This document shows, one piece after another, positions 4,500 through 31,629 of a stretch of 53,082 nucleotides of DNA. Positions within the stretch are counted from its first letter, which is position 1; every line of letters starts with the position of its first letter. The translations under genes were made by a program, and so were the position numbers. The DNA lies in assembly GCA_016866975.1 (NCBI GenBank), contig VGKP01000003.1, positions 1 through 53,082 on the forward strand. The letters run 5' to 3'. The notes beneath the pieces are model-generated. The model searched no databases. It was not told the origin of the DNA and worked only from the letters and a program-made list of their open reading frames with translations. Source of the stretch: Candidatus Pacearchaeota archaeon (GTDB lineage Archaea > Nanobdellota > Nanobdellia > Pacearchaeales > GW2011-AR1).

Positions 4500-5726
4500 T
4501 CAAACAACAACTTGAGCATCTCTATCAACATGTTTCCTCCAGCCTTGATTTGTTGGATCATATGAATTGATATAGCTTGAGATATAATTTGAAGGAATCA
4601 TCGCTTTGTGTCCTCTTCCTCTCTTGAAATTCACGTTTTTCCAGACATTGTTTCTGCTCTGGATTCTCGATAGTTCTTTAGCGCTCATGACAGAAATTCC
4701 AAGAACATATGCAATATCCTTGAAACTCAAGGAATTTTCTTTCCCTGCAAGCCTTAAAAGTGCTTCTTGCCTTCTTTCTTCCAAAGCCTGGCCGTTAAAA
4801 TTAAGCTTATTTCTGACTCTGTAAAGTTCTTCGCGTATTTTATACTGTTCAATATCATAATAGTCATAGAGAGATTGGAGCGAAACACATCCCTTGCCAT
4901 CGGCCTCAAAATCTCTTTGTGTTACGAGCCTCTTAATAGTGATCTCACCCATATTAAGGACGGAGACAAGTTCTTGATAAGGTATCCCTATTCTGCCCTT
5001 GGTATTCCAACTGACAAGTTGCTCTTCAAGCTTAAAAAGCTCATCCCAATCACGATGTTTAAGGCGGTTAAGTGCCTCTTGGGGCAGGATGTCGATGCGA
5101 TGCTCAAAGTGATAGGATGTAAACTGGCGTGGTTGTGATGCAGTGACAAGATTGATGAAAGAAGGATGAAATTTCTTAATATACCTATCGCTCCCATTGA
5201 GTTGGTAAAATAAAAAGGGATGTGGGAAGCAGTGATAAATGATCTCATCAGGATCCGAACATTTTAGAGCAGTATGCGTTGCGCTGATTGATGTGTGAAT
5301 ATGCGCTGCAAGATTGCGTGAAAGAGCACAGCTTTGGCGGCCCTTCATAGTAGCAGGAGAAAGGACATAGTACTGAGATGCATTTCCTTTGAGCTTAAAT
5401 CCTACAAACGTAGTGATGCACTTGCGCTCTAAAGTTGACATTATTTCAGCATCTTTTTGCATGCGCTCCCGAAGTAGCTCATGATCATCGAAGAGTTCAT
5501 GGAGCGCAGTTACAGATACTCGCGTATAGTGGTGCTCGTAAACACCTTCCCGCAACTTCTTAAAAGAATCTTTTATTTTTTTTCTAGCTCGCCTGATAGA
5601 AGTCTGTTCCTGGAACTTAAGAGAACGTAGTCGCTGTTGTAAACGCACATTCATGTCATTATACCCTACCATTAAAAAATTGACTATCGAAACTCTTATA
5701 AGCTTTTCGTACAGGCTCCACCGCAA
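4500..5726 (-). CDS. Hypothetical protein with C-terminal HTH-like segments (start uncertain, possibly 5656)
   Basis: 408 aa ORF containing IPYQELVSVLNMGEITIKRLV and LSFKDIAYVLGISVMSAKEL. Confidence 0.55.
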   Translation of the reverse strand: MRWSLYEKLIRVSIVNFLMVGYNDMNVRLQQRLRSLKFQEQTSIRRARKKIKDSFKKLREGVYEHHYTRVSVTALHELFDDHELLRERMQKDAEIMSTLERKCITTFVGFKLKGNASQYYVLSPATMKGRQSCALSRNLAAHIHTSISATHTALKCSDPDEIIYHCFPHPFLFYQLNGSDRYIKKFHPSFINLVTASQPRQFTSYHFEHRIDILPQEALNRLKHRDWDELFKLEEQLVSWNTKGRIGIPYQELVSVLNMGEITIKRLVTQRDFEADGKGCVSLQSLYDYYDIEQYKIREELYRVRNKLNFNGQALEERRQEALLRLAGKENSLSFKDIAYVLGISVMSAKELSRIQSRNNVWKNVNFKRGRGHKAMIPSNYISSYINSYDPTNQGWRKHVDRDAQVVV

Positions 5727-23641: not shown

Positions 23642-24421
23642 ATGAAAAGATGCGTATCACTTTTATTCTTATTATTCTTAACAACTTTATTTGTATCTCC
23701 CTTTACCTCTGCATATCAAGACATAAGATATTATACCGAAACTACCGTAGATGCCTTTGTAAACGCTGTAGAGCCATTCCTTCAAGCTATACTTGGAGGA
23801 AACGATTGGACAAGCAAGTACTTGTTTGAGAAGCTCCTTATTTATTTCATCCTTGTCGCGTTGGTATTCTTCTCATTGAAAAACATCCCTGCATTCAGGG
23901 ATAGTGGCTCAAAGGTAACTGGATTTATATCCTTCCTGATACCTCTTATAGGCGTAAGATACATCGAGCCTGCATGGATTGAAGCGATACTCCTCCAATA
24001 CCAGATACTTGCAATAGCTCTTGCAGGCATTCTCCCTTTTATAATCTACTTCTTCTTCCTTCATGAAGGTGTAGGGAAAGAAAACGATGTGATAAGGAAA
24101 GTGGGATGGGTATTCTTCATAGTCATCTACTTTGGGCTCTGGACAACTGCTCCATCCAGTTCTTATGCAGACATCTATTTCTGGACAATGGTTGCATCCC
24201 TTATTTTACTTTTTATGGACAATACCATTCATCGAGCATTGATAATGCAAGATATGAAAAGAGCAGGAAGAACGCAAATAGCATTATATATTGGAGACTT
24301 AAGAGATAAGATTAGAGTTATTAGGGGTTCAGGACTCCCCCCAAATCAGATAGACAGCGAAGTAAGAGGATTAGAAAATCAAATCAGAAAAGCAATCAAA
24401 CAAATGGGAAGAATCCCTTAA
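23642..24421 (+). CDS. Multi-pass membrane protein (paralog of the previous gene)
   Basis: Same architecture: signal peptide, 5-6 TM and a C-terminal helix. TATA starts 29 nt upstream. Confidence 0.65.
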   Translation: MKRCVSLLFLLFLTTLFVSPFTSAYQDIRYYTETTVDAFVNAVEPFLQAILGGNDWTSKYLFEKLLIYFILVALVFFSLKNIPAFRDSGSKVTGFISFLIPLIGVRYIEPAWIEAILLQYQILAIALAGILPFIIYFFFLHEGVGKENDVIRKVGWVFFIVIYFGLWTTAPSSSYADIYFWTMVASLILLFMDNTIHRALIMQDMKRAGRTQIALYIGDLRDKIRVIRGSGLPPNQIDSEVRGLENQIRKAIKQMGRIP

Positions 24422-24428
24422 AAATATT

Positions 24429-24680
24429 TCAAATTCTTCTATATCCTACAACTTTCTTGCCCTCATAAATAGGCACTTCTGTGCCTTTCTTCTGTCCCTT
24501 TCCAGCAAGATAGACTAACACAGCCCCTATAATAGTTACAATCAGGCTTAAAGGCATAATGACAGTTGAAGACATTGATGCAGACAAGGACAAATAATTT
24601 CTTATAGGAGGAAAACTTGTGCTAGCAAGCCCTATTATCCCTAATGCAACTATAACATAACCCAATAATTTACTCACCAT
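24429..24680 (-). CDS. Small two-TM membrane protein
   Basis: Two hydrophobic helices and a VPIYEGKKVVGYRR tail. Confidence 0.6.
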   Translation of the reverse strand: MVSKLLGYVIVALGIIGLASTSFPPIRNYLSLSASMSSTVIMPLSLIVTIIGAVLVYLAGKGQKKGTEVPIYEGKKVVGYRRI

Positions 24681-24841
24681 CTTTACTAACTCAGCAGTTT
24701 TTTATATATAAACTTTTCTCATGGGAGGTGGATTGACATGTCAAAAACTCTCTTTGTACACTCCTTTAAATTAACCCCTTGATAGCCAAGGAGTTCTTGA
24801 CAATAGGAAAGTTTAAAAATTAACCATCATTAATTTCAAGA

Positions 24842-25498
24842 ATGTTCTTTAAGAAAAAATCAGAGAAAGAGAAACTTCGCTGCATGAATTGCGAATCAAA
24901 GGTCAGCGATAGCTTCATGTTCTGCCCCTATTGCGGAGAGAGTCTTGTAGATCCTGTTGAAGAGATGGAAGATTTTGGGATACTCGGAAGAAACGATATG
25001 GTCAACGAAGAGATGTTTTCTCCAACTCCTTCTCAATTAAGTATGACTGAGAAGATATTAAACTCTTTTATGAGTACTCTTATGAAAAGTATCGACCAGC
25101 AGGTCCAAAAATCCCAAAATGATAAGTCAGAGGTGACTGCTTTCCCTAATGGCATCAAGATAAGAATAGGCATGCCTGGACAGCAACAGCAGCCTAAGAA
25201 GGAAGAGCCTGTCATGAAGGTTTTTACTGATGACCAACTCAAGAAGATGTCTGGACTTCCCAGGACAAAAGCCAAAATGACGATGAAAAGGCTGAATAAT
25301 AAAGTCATATATGAGCTAAATACTCCAGGAATAAACTCCAGAGAAGACATCTATCTGGCAAAACTAGAATCAGGATATGAAATAAAGGCAATATCTGACA
25401 AGAAAGTATATGTAAACAGCATACCTATAAACCTTCCTTTAGACAACTACTCGATCCAAGACAACAAGCTCATTGTTGAATTCAAGGCGCAAAGATAA
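24842..25498 (+). CDS. Zinc-ribbon plus HSP20-like domain protein
   Basis: CxxC...CPYCG followed by a C-terminal alpha-crystallin-like beta pattern. Confidence 0.65.
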   Translation: MFFKKKSEKEKLRCMNCESKVSDSFMFCPYCGESLVDPVEEMEDFGILGRNDMVNEEMFSPTPSQLSMTEKILNSFMSTLMKSIDQQVQKSQNDKSEVTAFPNGIKIRIGMPGQQQQPKKEEPVMKVFTDDQLKKMSGLPRTKAKMTMKRLNNKVIYELNTPGINSREDIYLAKLESGYEIKAISDKKVYVNSIPINLPLDNYSIQDNKLIVEFKAQR

Positions 25499-25578
25499 TA
25501 TTCTCTTTAAAGTTTCTCGATACAACTAAGAATTCTTTCTGCAGATATCCATAGGGCAATTGACTAAGGACATAGGGA

Positions 25579-25652
25579 TGATCCCGCCAAGATTTGAACT
25601 TGGGACCCCTACCGTATCAGGATAGTGCTCTAACCAACTGAGCTACGGGATC
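25579..25652 (-). tRNA. tRNA-Ile(GAT)
   Basis: GATCCCG/CGGGATC acceptor, CTATC-CT-GAT-AC-GGTAG anticodon arm, CCAAG-TTCAAAT-CTTGG T-arm, A73. Confidence 0.95.
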
Positions 25653-25817
25653 AAGTATACCGAGCTTTGAACATTTAAAAATATGCTGGTTAATAATCCA
25701 ACTTGCTCGAAAAGTCTCACATCTCGAAGAATTTACTTTGCGAAGATGTTAAGAACAACACAATAGAGTGAAAACTCCATTAAGAATAAATACCCCGCTT
25801 TTCTATCATTCGAATAA

Positions 25818-25888
25818 GCAGCTTTAGTTCATCGGTAGAATGCGACCTTCCCAAGGTCGAGAGACGGGTTCAATTCCCGTAAGCTGCA
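25818..25888 (+). tRNA. tRNA-Gly(CCC)
   Basis: GCAGCTT/AAGCTGC acceptor, CGACC-TT-CCC-AA-GGTCG anticodon arm, ACGGG-TTCAATT-CCCGT T-arm, A73 (archaeal type). Confidence 0.93.
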
Positions 25889-26073
25889 TTGCTTACGGGA
25901 AGAATTCGCTGCAATTTTTATATGATTGCAGCTGCCGCGGACTTTGTCTGCGAGCACCGTAAGCTGCATTGCTTACGGGAAGAATTCGCTGCAATTATTA
26001 TATGATTGCAGCTGCCGCGGACTTTGTCTGCGAGCACCGTAAGCTGCATTGCTTACGGGAAGAATTCGCTGCA
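25877..26073 (+). repeat. 80-bp tandem repeat (about 2.5 copies) beginning with the last 12 nt of tRNA-Gly
   Basis: CCGTAAGCTGCA at 25877, 25957 and 26037. Units 1 and 2 differ at one base. Confidence 0.95.
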
Positions 26074-27666
26074 TCACCATTCTTGAGCATCCAACTTACT
26101 AGACTTTCTCATATAGGCTACCAATATGAATATGACGATTATTATAATCAAAGACAATATAAACAATAAAGCTACCCAGTAGACTATGCCTGCGTTCTGC
26201 ACTTTTGATCCTGGACCCAATAATGTGCTATTGATTGTAAGATTGGAACTGTTTACCACTAAATTGTTGTTTGTAGATGCACTTCCGCTTTGTTTTGAAA
26301 CTGGAAAAGCTTCTCTTACGGCCAAGATTTTAAGATTTGCCTTTCCAGATGTAATGCTTATTAATGTCACATTTAGGTCAAAATATAAGTCGCTGTTAAC
26401 ATCGAATTGTCTTGTCTGTCCAACAGCTATGGTTGCCTGCTGTGGTGTTGAAGAGACATTGATGACTACGCTCTGCCCAAAGACATTTACCATCCCTACA
26501 TGATGGTCTTCCCCGGCCACCTTGACTCTTATGGCTTCAGAATTTGCAAGTTCTTTTGTATATCCTGCATTTGCTTGAGTATCATTTATTATAAATATTA
26601 ACTTCCATTGAGGTGAACTTGTTATCTGGGACCCAGAATTGCCCTCTGAAGGCACGCAAGCCGACGTGGTAGCTGTAGCATTCTGAGCTTTAGAGTTTCC
26701 AGCACTATCTGTACAAGTGACAGTATAATTATAGTTGCTAAGACAAGTCAGACTTGATTCTGTAAGTCTTTGACTTGTCCCATTTCCAGATATAGTTGCT
26801 CCTGACCTGCTTGATGTGCACATTGCACTGACTCCAGATAGAGAATCACTGAGAGTTATGTTAATAGACACTACAGATGCAGTAACTTCTGAAGTAGATA
26901 AAGTTACAGTAGGAGAGGTAGTATCTAAGATAAATATTCTATTCTCGCTCCAGTTCCTGTTTCCAAAGCTATCATTGGCACTAACATTTATCCTATAGGT
27001 TCCCTGAACAAGTCCGCTGAAATTTACATTTATTGATGATGAAGTATAGTTTGTAGTAGAATTTACTATCTGGTGAGAAGCATTATAGAGATAGAAAGAT
27101 ACTGACTGAAAAATGCCATTATCTGATACACTCACATTCATTGTCAAAGAAGTTGTAGAGAGATTTATCCCAGAAAGAGAGGTTGGAGAATTGAATGTCA
27201 AGGATGGAGGAGTAGTGTCATTCACAGATACTGCAATCAATGTAGTATTGGAGAATCCGGAGCTATTTGCCGTGATTATTGTAAAATTGAAATTGCCTGG
27301 ATTTGCCGCTGTAGCATTAAACCATACAAATACTCTGCTTCCATTTTTCACAATTCCTAAATCTGAAGAAGAAACATTCCATATAAGGTCTGATGAGCTT
27401 GAAAATGTCGTGCTTGTGCTGCTGCTCATTCCAGCACTACCTGAAACATAAGTAAATCCTGATGGGAGAGTTATGTTTATATAAGAAATATTCTCAGGAG
27501 ATGTCAAAGCAGTATTGTTTACAGAGATATTGTAAAGTATAGAGATGTCTTCATTTGAATTAAAAGAAGCCTGAAAGTCTGAGGTTAAGACTATATGCAA
27601 TGCAGACACTCCAAATAACAACACTATGAATAGAAAAGCGGCCGTTGAAAAAAGACTACACCTCAT
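26074..27666 (-). CDS. Surface/S-layer-like glycoprotein with Ig-like repeats and C-terminal TM anchor
   Basis: Signal peptide, dense N-x-S/T sequons, Ser/Thr rich; module-for-module paralog of the next gene. Confidence 0.75.
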   Translation of the reverse strand: MRCSLFSTAAFLFIVLLFGVSALHIVLTSDFQASFNSNEDISILYNISVNNTALTSPENISYINITLPSGFTYVSGSAGMSSSTSTTFSSSSDLIWNVSSSDLGIVKNGSRVFVWFNATAANPGNFNFTIITANSSGFSNTTLIAVSVNDTTPPSLTFNSPTSLSGINLSTTSLTMNVSVSDNGIFQSVSFYLYNASHQIVNSTTNYTSSSINVNFSGLVQGTYRINVSANDSFGNRNWSENRIFILDTTSPTVTLSTSEVTASVVSINITLSDSLSGVSAMCTSSRSGATISGNGTSQRLTESSLTCLSNYNYTVTCTDSAGNSKAQNATATTSACVPSEGNSGSQITSSPQWKLIFIINDTQANAGYTKELANSEAIRVKVAGEDHHVGMVNVFGQSVVINVSSTPQQATIAVGQTRQFDVNSDLYFDLNVTLISITSGKANLKILAVREAFPVSKQSGSASTNNNLVVNSSNLTINSTLLGPGSKVQNAGIVYWVALLFILSLIIIIVIFILVAYMRKSSKLDAQEW

Positions 27667-27696
27667 AGATGAAAAAAGATTACAAGTTTTATAAAT

Positions 27697-29706
27697 CTAC
27701 CTACGACGACGCCGCATCACTAGGACAATTAATATCACTACAATGATAGCCACTACAAGATACACATATTTATCTGAGGATAATGTTTTTTGGGTCTTCT
27801 TTTCTGCCTGCCCAACATCCTGTTTTTGTTCTCCGCTTTCTTGAGCAGTATTCTCAGAGGATGGCTTCTTATTGGTATCTGAAGCGACTATTGCTGAAGG
27901 CATTATCTCATAGACTTTCTTCATGGTTACATTAACCTTTCCAGCCTGAATGCTATTGAGGGTCACATTAAGGTCATAATAACTGTCATTTGTAAGCTCG
28001 AATTGCCTTGTCTGTCCTACTCTCAAAGTAACTTTCTGAGGTGTTGAAGCAACTTCAATAGTTGCAGTTCCAGCACTGGAATCAACACTCACAACTCCTA
28101 CACTATGACTGCCTCCACTTACAGTGATGCTCGCCTTCTGATTGGCTGAGAGAGAAGTAGAGACTCCTTCACTTACCTGCGTCTCCGTTACAGTCTGTAC
28201 TACTGACCAAGAAGGGGTTGTAGAAGGACTGCTTCCGCCGCCTCCACCGCCGCCGCCTCCTCCACTAGAACATCCTAAAGTTGTGAAATCCTTTGTCGCA
28301 GCCCCAGAACGACCACTCTGGTCGTAACAGGTTATGGTATATGAATACGTAGTGCTGCAAGTCAAGCTAGATTCTGTAAGTGTCTGACTTCCTCCCGTGC
28401 CACTTACGCTGGATGTAGAACGATTTGTAGTACAGGTGCCATTGATAGAAGATCCAGATTCGGCAACAGTAATTGGGACACTTATAGTTGTATCTGTTGA
28501 TGTAGACTCTCCAAGTGAGACTGTAGGGTTAGAAGTATCTACTGTAATAGTTCTTGTTGGCAGACTCAAATTCAGGTTTCCAGCAGTGTCATTGACTGTG
28601 ACATTAAAGAAGTAGACACCATCATTAAGTCCTGTGAAGTTAACATAGAATGAAGAGAGAGTGCCATTATCACTAGCAAATGTGAGATTGCTCCTAACAA
28701 TACTTCCACTTGCATTATGAAGCGATATATTAGTAAAATTGAAATTGGTATCAATTGCAGAAATATTGACAACTATAAAGTTTCTACTTACAAAAGAATT
28801 ATTTGCCTCAGTTCCAGTGCCATAGGTAGGAACAGGAATTATAGTATCGATAGTGACTGTTCTCGTAGCAGTAGTAGCATTGAGATTTCCAGCAGTATCA
28901 TTAGCTGTGACATTGAAATAGTATACACCATCAGCAAGATTTGTAATATTGAAGCTAAAGTTCGTGTTTAGTTTAGTTTCTTGAGAGACATTAGAGAATG
29001 TTGTAGTATTGGTATAATTGAACGTGCCTGAAAGATTAGAGCCGCTTGCATTGTAAAACATTCCACTCGCGTTAAAGAGTGCAAGTGTAATGGTTTGTAT
29101 TGCACCATTATCATATGTACTAGCATTAACAAAAATTGATCTAGCAGCGATAAAAGACCCATTTAATGGAGTTGACCCCTGATAAGTTATTGCATTCGGT
29201 ATGGTAGTATCATTTACAATTATTGAAATATTGGTATAATTGACAAAACCAGATACATTCATCGTCGTCACAGTCATATTGTATGTTCCAGGAGTAGATG
29301 CGTTGACCAAGAACCAGAAGTTTACCCTTGTTGCATTTGCTACAAGGATGGCTCCTGTCCCGTCTGCAAGAGTGCTGTTCCAAGAAAGCACAGTAGAAGT
29401 ATTAGTGAAAGTAATACCATACCCGCTTGTTGTTGCATTAGTTGCATTTGTCCCATTTAGGAAAGAAAATCCAGTAAGAAGAGTGACATTCACTTGAGTT
29501 ATATTATCGAAAGCAAGGAGAGCAGTGTTATTCACAGTTATATTTATTGTGAAATTCACATCTTCTCTAGCAGGAACGTGCCCAGCAGCATTGAGTGGCG
29601 CACCAGTAATTATGTCAAATCCTTGAACTATGGATAAAAATATTATAGCAAACAGAACAGACCATACGAATAAAAACACTGCAAACCATCTGCCCTCTTT
29701 TTTCAT
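27697..29706 (-). CDS. Surface/S-layer-like glycoprotein (paralog, with an internal duplicated module and poly-Gly linker); start likely MKKEGRW
   Basis: DGVY(Y/F)FNVT(A/V)NDTAGNLN occurs twice, a G10 linker, and TM plus basic tail. The upstream extension in the ORF track runs into the hairpin element. Confidence 0.75.
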   Translation of the reverse strand: MKKEGRWFAVFLFVWSVLFAIIFLSIVQGFDIITGAPLNAAGHVPAREDVNFTINITVNNTALLAFDNITQVNVTLLTGFSFLNGTNATNATTSGYGITFTNTSTVLSWNSTLADGTGAILVANATRVNFWFLVNASTPGTYNMTVTTMNVSGFVNYTNISIIVNDTTIPNAITYQGSTPLNGSFIAARSIFVNASTYDNGAIQTITLALFNASGMFYNASGSNLSGTFNYTNTTTFSNVSQETKLNTNFSFNITNLADGVYYFNVTANDTAGNLNATTATRTVTIDTIIPVPTYGTGTEANNSFVSRNFIVVNISAIDTNFNFTNISLHNASGSIVRSNLTFASDNGTLSSFYVNFTGLNDGVYFFNVTVNDTAGNLNLSLPTRTITVDTSNPTVSLGESTSTDTTISVPITVAESGSSINGTCTTNRSTSSVSGTGGSQTLTESSLTCSTTYSYTITCYDQSGRSGAATKDFTTLGCSSGGGGGGGGGGSSPSTTPSWSVVQTVTETQVSEGVSTSLSANQKASITVSGGSHSVGVVSVDSSAGTATIEVASTPQKVTLRVGQTRQFELTNDSYYDLNVTLNSIQAGKVNVTMKKVYEIMPSAIVASDTNKKPSSENTAQESGEQKQDVGQAEKKTQKTLSSDKYVYLVVAIIVVILIVLVMRRRRR

Positions 29707-31293: not shown

Positions 31294-31295
31294 AA

Positions 31296-31574
31296 CGTCC
31301 CCTGGAGGACTCGAACCTCCGACCCTGCGGTTACAACCTTCTCTAATTACTTAGAGGGTAGGACTATACCATCACCATAGCAAAATGCCTCAGGTGGCGA
31401 GTGTCTAGTCTCTGCACCTTCCCTTTCGGGCTTGGCTCAGGATTGCCCTTTACCAATAAAGGGTTTCCCTGAATTTACTCGCTTTTTCATTCCACAGTTT
31501 CCTATGAAAGCTGCTAACTCGGTTTTTTCAACCTGTCTTACAGCCGCATGCTCTACCGGCTGAGCTAAGGGGAC
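31296..31574 (-). tRNA. tRNA-Asn(GTT) interrupted at 35/36 (exon 1 31574-31540, exon 2 31333-31296)
   Basis: Splicing gives a canonical 73-nt cloverleaf: GTCCCCT/AGGGGAC, TGCGG-CT-GTT-AA-CCGCA, GGAGG-TTCGAGT-CCTCC, G73. Confidence 0.9.
31334..31539 (-). ncRNA. Group I intron (IC3-like), 206 nt, no ORF
   Basis: P3 GCGAGU/ACUCGC, P4 UUCAGG/CCUGAG, P7 GACUA/UAGUC, IGS GUUAGCAGC forming P1 (U35.G wobble) and P10, terminal omega-G. Confidence 0.92.
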
Positions 31575-31629
31575 ATAGAAACATCAAAGAAAAACGTTAT
31601 TTAAAGCTTTAGATGAAGCACAAAATAAG

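Follow-up and report, generated by a model that had tools for sequence, protein, structure and literature searches.

The 80-bp tandem array behind the tRNA-Gly(CCC) gene in the window, i.e. in the whole stretch of 53,082 nucleotides analysed here, is one member of a family of two-hairpin cassettes which, in the samples taken, are restricted to one family of DPANN archaea. The cassettes lie almost exclusively behind tRNA genes and carry antisense and sense copies of the end of whichever tRNA they adjoin, and the comparison with genomes of the same genus suggests that the cassette block is an insertion. The reading put forward here, at roughly even chances, is that the array is a gene-less insertion element amplified by unequal recombination.

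Organisation of the array behind tRNA-Gly(CCC)

The window is contig C3 of a genome of 0.81 Mb in 31 contigs that is 89% complete and has a G + C content of 39%. Covariance models of the two-hairpin core, termed A1 and R1, were used together with repeat searches and structure prediction, and with hp2 and hp3 denoting the two hairpins of the core the locus consists of the following features:

25818–25888 (+): tRNA-Gly(CCC), intact, without an encoded CCA (ARAGORN; Rfam RF00005, 64.9 bits); its nucleotides 62–73 (25877–25888, CCGTAAGCTGCA) are the first direct-repeat copy
25874–25901 (+): perfect 28-nt palindrome with arms 25874–25884 (TTCCCGTAAGC) and 25891–25901 (GCTTACGGGAA), 11 of 11 positions complementary
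25889–25956 (+): cassette copy 1, 68 nt (R1 match at 25902–25957, 70.5 bits; repeat families; fold)
25889–25907 (+), 5' part of copy 1, in this order: spacer TT; anti-tRNA segment, nt 68 to 58 (25891–25901); G; sense T-loop AATTC (25903–25907)
25908–25932 (+), hp2 of copy 1: arms 25908–25915 and 25925–25932, loop with a T5 run at 25915–25919
25936–25952 (+), hp3 of copy 1: CGCGGAC (25936–25942) and GTCTGCG (25946–25952), followed by the tail AGCA
25957–25968 (+): direct repeat 1, copy of tRNA nt 62–73
25969–26036 (+): cassette copy 2, 68 nt (R1 match at 25982–26037, 68.5 bits)
26037–26048 (+): direct repeat 2, copy of tRNA nt 62–73
26049–26073 (+): truncated third cassette, 25 nt, with spacer, anti-tRNA segment, GAATTC and the first 6 nt of hp2
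26074–27666 (−): convergent ORF of 530 aa with a weak Big_13 Ig-like match, context outside the element

In agreement with the original prediction of 80-bp tandem units derived from the 3' end of tRNA-Gly, TRF reports a period of 80 bp with 2.5 copies at 25877–26073 and 99% matching, and a repeat search places the unit copies at 25877–25956 and 25957–26036, with a partial third at 26037–26073. Each unit starts with the last 12 nt of the tRNA (nt 62–73), as had also been predicted; the array begins at the last base of the tRNA gene, and the third cassette ends exactly against the stop codon of the convergent ORF (26074–26076). The two full units differ at only one of 80 positions, which argues for a recent amplification: copy 2 is identical to copy 1 apart from an A at 25997, corresponding to the T at 25917, which abolishes the T5 run. 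In copy 1, hp2 is an 8–9-bp hairpin spanning 25908–25932.

The 5' arm of the 28-nt palindrome comprises the end of the tRNA T-loop, the 3' strand of the T-stem and the start of the acceptor 3' strand, while its 3' arm is the anti-tRNA segment of the cassette. With a 6-nt loop (TGCATT), and thus an 11-6-11 geometry, it folds with −18.5 kcal/mol (z = −6.2), so that the perfect 11-bp complement which had been noticed directly after the gene stands in full. In the predicted fold of the whole region the T-arm is sequestered in this 11-bp helix, with z = −9.4 versus shuffles. Of note, a divergent tRNA-Ile(GAU) gene (25576–25653, −) lies 164 nt upstream of tRNA-Gly(CCC) and is without a cassette.

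Further cassette loci in the genome

With introns allowed, ARAGORN finds 43 tRNAs in the genome, many of them with anticodon-loop introns, and the genome also encodes an archaeal tRNA splicing endonuclease, which marks it as that of a small-genome archaeon. One of these tRNAs, tRNA-Asn(GUU) in the window (31295–31575, −), has an intervening sequence of 206 nt according to ARAGORN. When all tRNAs of the genome were scanned for downstream copies of their own last 12 nt, the same arrangement was found at four of them (Gly-GCC, Ser-GGA, Arg-CCT and Gly-CCC). Outside the window, the loci comprise:

C1: tRNA-Gly(GCC) array, four copies of CCGGCGGGCGCA between cassettes of 70, 77 and 70 nt
C5: tRNA-Ser(GGA) array, 80 bp × 2
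C25: tRNA-Arg(CCT) array, 84 bp × 2
C9: array of the intron-containing tRNA-Arg(UCU), 86 bp × 3
C4/C26 contig break: tRNA-Thr(CGT), single cassette
C8: tRNA-Arg(GCG), single cassette

At least seven tRNA genes of the genome therefore bear cassettes, and at five of them (Gly-GCC, Gly-CCC, Ser-GGA, Arg-CCT and Arg-UCU) the tRNA 3' end is repeated 2–4 times. The 77-nt unit on C1 and the tRNA-Gly(CCC) unit are homologous and have two blocks in common, GGGAAGAATTC and TGCCGCGGACTTTGTCTGCGAGCA, the latter 24 nt long; the intervening hairpin has a different sequence in the two units, but its pairing is kept. An identical 24-nt hp3 is thus found behind two different tRNAs of the same genome. Cassette types beyond the core model also occur, namely the Arg-CCT type and the 70-nt 'A' unit of the tRNA-Gly(GCC) array. 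At its start, C4 breaks off within the tRNA-Thr(CGT) cassette (C4:1–175), and since C26 ends in the same sequence (C26:5355–5422), the two contigs are probably connected by a repeated array of cassettes at which the assembly broke.

With respect to the antisense segment, a complement of at least 8 nt to the last 28 nt of the tRNA is present within 60 nt downstream of seven of the 43 tRNAs, six of which are cassette loci. In the upstream control, likewise of 60 nt, such a complement is found at one of 43 tRNAs, the longest complement measuring 3–6 nt at 42 of them and 9 nt at the remaining one.

Distribution and structure of the core

As an exact-pattern search for the core proved too strict (two of 61 genomes), a covariance model was used instead. 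In the family sample, which holds one genome per genus, R1 matches were obtained in 21 of 151 genomes, and in a class-wide sample of 151 genomes core matches were confined to the same family. Of the 42 core copies in the fetched loci, 37 follow a tRNA 3' end at a distance of no more than about 210 nt: 25 start 3–37 nt past the tRNA 3' end, and 12 are second or third cassettes located 52–209 nt downstream. The tRNA species concerned number 12 or more and include Gly, Lys, Ala, Cys, Leu, Ser, Gln, Glu, Thr, Met, Phe and Arg, so that the amplification is not particular to tRNA-Gly. Roughly one in three cassettes carries the core antisense to the tRNA.

The core consists of two hairpins, of which hp2 is often ACTTCAA-CUC-GUAA-GAG-UUGAAGU with a GNRA-type loop, and hp3 is CCGCGGA...UCUGCG and variants thereof. 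Both hairpins covary in an alignment fitted to the model, with 98% paired cells as compared to 86% in shuffles and 27–46% with slid partners, and double-sided changes are seen in nine of the 13 hairpin pairs of the same fitted alignment, which suggests that the hairpins are under selection. At the pair 50–106 a G.U is dominant (21 of 30 cells). The hp3 subtype CCCAGAAAAT... is found behind Lys, Gly and Met tRNAs in different genera; because of this one subtype behind different tRNAs, vertical cassette lineages that are specific for a given tRNA were rejected.

Anatomy of the cassettes relative to the host tRNA

Mapping 22 cassettes onto their own tRNA, from 14 forward and eight reverse loci, reveals a constant scaffold on the tRNA strand, which consists of the tRNA, a spacer of 2–20 nt, an antisense segment running from about nt 65 to nt 53, and a sense copy that extends to nt 73. 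In the forward type (14 loci, including tRNA-Gly(CCC)) the core has the same strand as the tRNA and interrupts the sense copy with a clean break at 60/61 or 61/62, whereas in the reverse type (eight loci) it is on the other strand and resides between the antisense copy and a sense copy starting at nt 53–58. Position and orientation of the core are coupled without exception in the 22 mapped cassettes, and the junctions are at the edges of the T-loop (53/54, 57/58, and 60/61 or 61/62). In most cassettes the antisense copy reaches 2–7 nt past the generic T-loop into tRNA-specific sequence, and at tRNA-Gly(CCC) it reaches nt 68. What had been described as an anti-tRNA stem at a single locus hence turns out to be a trait of the whole cassette family and not a chance palindrome.

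Across loci, the gap between the T-arm of the tRNA and its complement varies from 6 to 27 nt, the repeated tRNA end measures 12–20 nt (12 at tRNA-Gly(CCC)), and the units measure 68–90 nt. Distal tRNA-end copies carry mismatches at several loci, as is expected of unselected DNA. On its left, the core is mostly preceded by the hexamers TCGAAT, GAGAAT, CAAATC, GAATTC or similar; in most copies the core's immediate left flank is GAAT, AATC, GAAC or similar, the whole cassette being bracketed by the tRNA-end repeats. These left flanks are T-loop-like on whichever strand carries the core. A separate observation concerns locus L050 (G155:C48), where about 60 nt upstream of an intact tRNA-Lys(CUU) there is a truncated 5' piece of a tRNA (GGCTCCGTAGCTCA) and, after it, a reverse core. 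Downstream of the intact tRNA-Lys there is a bare T-loop palindrome, GATTTGAAC TTTA GTTCAAATC, without a core or a repeated 3' end, which may represent a core-less scaffold.

The original prediction further proposed that each unit junction forms a 41-nt helix resembling the glycine acceptor end, which would be processed, CCA-tailed and maybe charged. The segments invoked, GCAGCT (25928–25933), which equals tRNA nt 1–6, and AGCTGC-A (25962–25968), are indeed present twice, and the 41-mer folds as proposed when taken alone (−21.3 kcal/mol, z = −3.4). However, once the whole of hp2 is included, hp2 persists in the predicted structure and the repeated tRNA end remains unpaired, and the helix would have to hold a 9-nt bulge; that the pairing exists at all is explained by the unusual hp2 stem at tRNA-Gly(CCC) (GCTGCAAT/ATTGCAGC), which happens to contain GCAGC. 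In addition, the tRNA-Gly(GCC) cassette is without a strand complementary to its own acceptor 3' strand, and no consistent acceptor complement is found across the 22 cassettes. An acceptor-stem minihelix, which is neither conserved nor able to compete with hp2 in any fold comprising the whole hairpin, was therefore rejected, and its probability is considered to be minimal.

Empty sites and copies of the core outside tRNA flanks

Comparison with relatives, which had been suggested as a check on the array, provides evidence for insertion. In the same-genus genome G001 the tRNA-Ile/tRNA-Gly(CCC) pair is syntenic, but tRNA-Gly(CCC) is followed directly by TTCAATTTATTTTG..., and the spacer, anti-T segment, hairpins and repeated end are all absent. 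Likewise, tRNA-Gly(GCC) is bare in G012 and G003, where it has plain T-rich trailers and no anti-T segment. As the cassette is absent behind orthologous tRNAs in three genomes of the same genus, the block would have been inserted in the genome studied here, and since anti-T segments occur nearly only at cassette loci, the bare orthologues further suggest that the antisense segment arrives together with the cassette. The empty orthologous sites, and the 36 of 43 tRNAs without such a segment, rule out a native 'anti-T' terminator hairpin. Among the three readings first offered for the array (a processing switch, a source of tRNA-like small RNAs, or an integration scar), the integration scar thus comes closest in view of the empty site behind tRNA-Gly(CCC) in G001, although the cassettes are intact and not mere remnants. 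Further copies of the repeated tRNA ends with at most one mismatch were not found elsewhere in the contigs of the genome, and this lack of distant copies rules out a larger island bounded by the repeats.

The core is also found within canonical 37/38 tRNA introns of related genomes, in both orientations. In a tRNA-Thr intron it is on the sense strand, and in a tRNA-Ser intron it is antisense and splits the centre of the palindrome AAGAACCAAGGTTCTT, which is intact in another intron. A copy in the 23S rRNA gene (C6:5753–5804, positions 954–1005 of locus L071) lies just upstream of one of two group-I-intron-like matches (173–299 at 31 bits and 996–1355 at 25.9 bits), both of them below the gathering score of 50. 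Finally, one intergenic copy (L038) has no tRNA nearby.

A putative insertion mechanism and alternative explanations

According to the reading as an insertion element, the two-hairpin core would be the mobile part and would be recognised as a hairpin in single-stranded form, given that only one strand folds well on account of the dominant G.U pair. It would land at a T-loop-like sequence (GAAT/AATC), and the antisense and sense segments matching the tRNA would be made from the target during or after the insertion, probably via template switching on the T-arm palindrome. That these segments are made from the target is a conjecture, and we know of no transposition mechanism that makes both inverted and direct copies of its target. 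Unequal recombination between the repeated tRNA ends, or replication slippage between them, would then have given rise to the near-identical units. To the tRNA itself, the cassette would probably be a mere structured 3' trailer that is removed by RNase Z. Archaeal transcription terminates at oligo-T, and most transcripts that start at the tRNA promoter would probably end at the T5 run of unit 1 and not extend into units 2 and 3.

From the identical hp3 at different tRNAs and the copies in tRNA introns and in the 23S rRNA region we infer that the core may move on its own. The insertion reading has further points against it, however. No transposase or recombinase is tied to the cassettes, the order of tRNA, antisense and sense segment is fixed whatever the orientation of the core, which selection on a transcript could explain, and the covariation of the hairpins together with the dominant G.U fit a functional RNA equally well.

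A first alternative is that the cassette would encode a functional 3'-trailer RNA co-transcribed with the tRNA, and that the anti-T segment of the cassette would delay or gate cloverleaf folding and 3' processing or would be released as a tRNA-specific small RNA. In line with such a function, the tRNA-strand order of the scaffold is the same whichever way the core points, each tRNA is matched by an antisense segment of its own, most loci have no run of five or more T between tRNA and cassette, and the predicted fold sequesters the T-arm in the 11-bp helix; moreover, three E. coli tRNA-linked repeats (TLRs) behind rrn operons have been reported as processed sRNAs (PMC8144298). Against it stands the reverse orientation of the core in roughly one locus out of three, with which a co-transcribed tRNA-like small RNA, as envisaged in the original prediction, is hard to square: in the tRNA-sense transcript, reverse cores would present UUAC-type loops in place of the GNRA-type ones and C.A mismatches in place of G.U. 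Furthermore, the orthologous tRNAs in three genomes of the same genus work without a cassette, only about seven of the 43 tRNAs in the genome carry one, the tRNA-end copies farther downstream are decaying, archaeal transcription would be expected to terminate at the T5 run of unit 1 without reaching units 2 and 3, and no Rfam family matches the cassette. The constant tRNA-strand scaffold and the strong structure (z = −9.4) keep a functional trailer under consideration, but it is deemed unlikely. The anti-T segment may conceivably act as a processing switch, one of the readings first offered, but none of the tests made speaks for such a role.

A second alternative is site-specific recombination, in which a tyrosine recombinase would use the T-arm as its core site and either integrate a tiny att-bearing DNA or rearrange T-arm copies, so that att-like duplications accumulate in tandem. 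The T-arm, with 5-bp inverted stems around a 7-nt loop, would as a recombinase core site explain the junctions at the T-loop edges in the 22 cassettes, and the palindromic TTCGAA loop would allow for both alignments and hence for inverted as well as direct joints. Direct repeats of a tRNA 3' end around inserted DNA are the classic signature of integration, and the cassettes show this signature. Also the mixed A-B-A array behind tRNA-Gly(GCC) resembles successive additions at one site, the palindrome at tRNA-Gly(CCC) has an 11-6-11 geometry, and the genome encodes two tyrosine recombinases. Yet the insert is gene-less and only 68–90 bp long, and a double-stranded circle of that size would be hard to synapse; no extra copy of the repeat on the contigs bounds a larger island; and the gap of 6 to 27 nt between the T-arm and its complement is unlike a recombinase core site. 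In addition, the cargo of an integrase would bring along a donor tRNA segment, whereas here the same core subtypes are accompanied by segments matching whichever tRNA adjoins, and one of the two recombinases is presumably the housekeeping XerA. Recombination at the T-arm is accordingly regarded as quite unlikely.

Returning to the insertion element, it would be a considerably bolder and rather doubtful step to regard the core as a new mobile module that targets stable-RNA genes, moves among tRNA introns, an rRNA gene and tRNA 3' flanks, and mimics the tRNA end from its target. If this were true, the module could be a vehicle of intron gain in archaeal tRNAs and could serve as a model for the origin of the E. 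coli tRNA-linked repeats.

Search for a mobilising enzyme

Neither Cas1 (PF01867) nor TnpB nor a reverse transcriptase (RVT_1) was found in the 89%-complete genome, and on these grounds a CRISPR/casposon route (no Cas1) and a retro-element route (no RVT_1) were rejected. Transposases of the Y1 (IS200/IS605) type are present, with one full gene (C10:194–541) and two identical 63-aa C-terminal remnants at contig ends (C6:1–153 and C12:26760–26912). These remnants are followed by a GC-rich hairpin and GAGCTTCAC, beyond which the flanks diverge, and this right end of the IS resembles hp3 plus GAGCAC only loosely. Among genomes that are incomplete MAGs, Y1 genes were detected in ten of 21 cassette-positive as compared to 38 of 130 cassette-negative ones, and Y1 was not detected in the two cassette-richest genomes, G134 and G189, which are incomplete as well. 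With genes present but co-occurrence weak, the Y1 transposase was set aside as the driver. Of the two tyrosine recombinases encoded in the genome, one is probably XerA, and the search of the genome yielded no transposase or recombinase tied to the cassettes.

Comparison with known systems

The closest parallel are the TLRs of E. coli, 22 units of which are found at ten loci with 1–5 units per locus, each ending in the 18–19-bp 3' end of the upstream tRNA or rRNA gene (PMC8144298). They have been known since 1978, are mostly without known function, and their origin is unexplained (PMC8144298); examples are the 178-bp repeats of tyrT, the RtT RNA and rrA/rrB/rrF (Egan & Landy 1978 and Rudd 1999, as cited in PMC8144298). 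The archaeal units, too, are non-coding, lie directly downstream of a stable-RNA gene with one to several units per locus at many loci, and each terminate with a repeat of the upstream tRNA's 3' end. In contrast to the TLRs, they belong to an archaeon and not to an enterobacterium, repeat 12–20 instead of 18–19 nt of the gene end, and consist of 68–90-nt units with a covarying core that can be inserted either way and an antisense copy of the T-arm. A cmscan of 24000–28000 against Rfam (E ≤ 1), RtT included, returned only tRNA and chance matches, so that among known RNA families none but tRNA matches. By this analogy in architecture, the cassettes may be regarded as the archaeal counterpart of the E. 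coli TLRs without being homologous to them. To the TLR class they add an antisense T-arm segment, a core in either orientation and a link to introns. The archaeal cassettes show the TLR architecture independently and with far more internal structure.

Like PATEs (IS200/IS605), REP/BIME, Correia and RPE elements, the cassettes are small, gene-less, multi-copy imperfect hairpins with strand-specific features; they likewise occur in both orientations and in introns or intergenic DNA, and the cassette-bearing genome has Y1 genes. The imperfect subterminal hairpins of PATEs, which are recognised on one strand, have their parallel in the covarying hp2 and hp3 with a dominant G.U at one position. What sets the cassettes apart from these elements is their nearly exclusive location downstream of tRNA genes, the direct and inverted copies of the target on their flanks and the lack of a clear co-occurrence with Y1. 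In IS608-type ends the hairpin does not abut the junction, while the cassette hairpin directly abuts the left one.

An apparent 'transposition' of archaeal tRNA introns, with similar introns at many tRNAs, has been described in the Thermoproteales (Fujishima et al. 2010, as cited in PMC4033280). Bulge-helix-bulge (BHB) introns and the cassettes have in common that similar modules are found at many tRNAs, and the two-hairpin module occurs inside canonical 37/38 introns of related genomes; the cassette module, in contrast, is outside an intact tRNA, 3' of the discriminator base. A BHB scanner that recovers three of the five known introns of the genome found one inter-unit motif in the array (25935/26015), which is matched in quality in 30% of shuffled units, and nothing consistent in the other arrays. 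With no BHB motif above chance at the cassette borders, BHB processing was rejected.

As in att duplications and CIMEs, a direct repeat of the tRNA 3' end brackets the insert, the tRNA stays intact and tandem build-up is possible. However, the insert of the cassette (68 nt) contains no integrase or other gene and has no outer repeat, and its tRNA-like segments match the neighbouring tRNA, whichever this may be.

The cassettes offer a comparative handle on two questions, namely the origin of such repeats and the spread of archaeal tRNA introns from gene to gene. This handle rests on the covarying core, the matched tRNA segments, the filled and empty orthologous sites, and the copies in introns and in the 23S rRNA gene. 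In practical terms, cassettes break assemblies, as at C4 and C26, and can mislead the annotation of tRNAs and small RNAs in DPANN genomes.

Other repeats in the genome

Apart from the cassettes, a 45-bp array of 4.9 copies (C7:4845–5064) starts inside the 5' end of tRNA-Pro(GGG) (4779–4853, −) and runs upstream; it is a separate repeat family with the hairpin AAGGGAAC...GTTGCCCTT. Arrays with periods of 36–37 bp and 71 bp, several of them at contig ends, are found at C5:47596–47700, C12:1–163, C4:33697–33835 and C10:23310–23538. They are built of hairpins of the AGAACC-GTAG-GTTCT type, and palindromes related to these hairpins (AAGAACCAAGGTTCTT) also occur inside tRNA introns.
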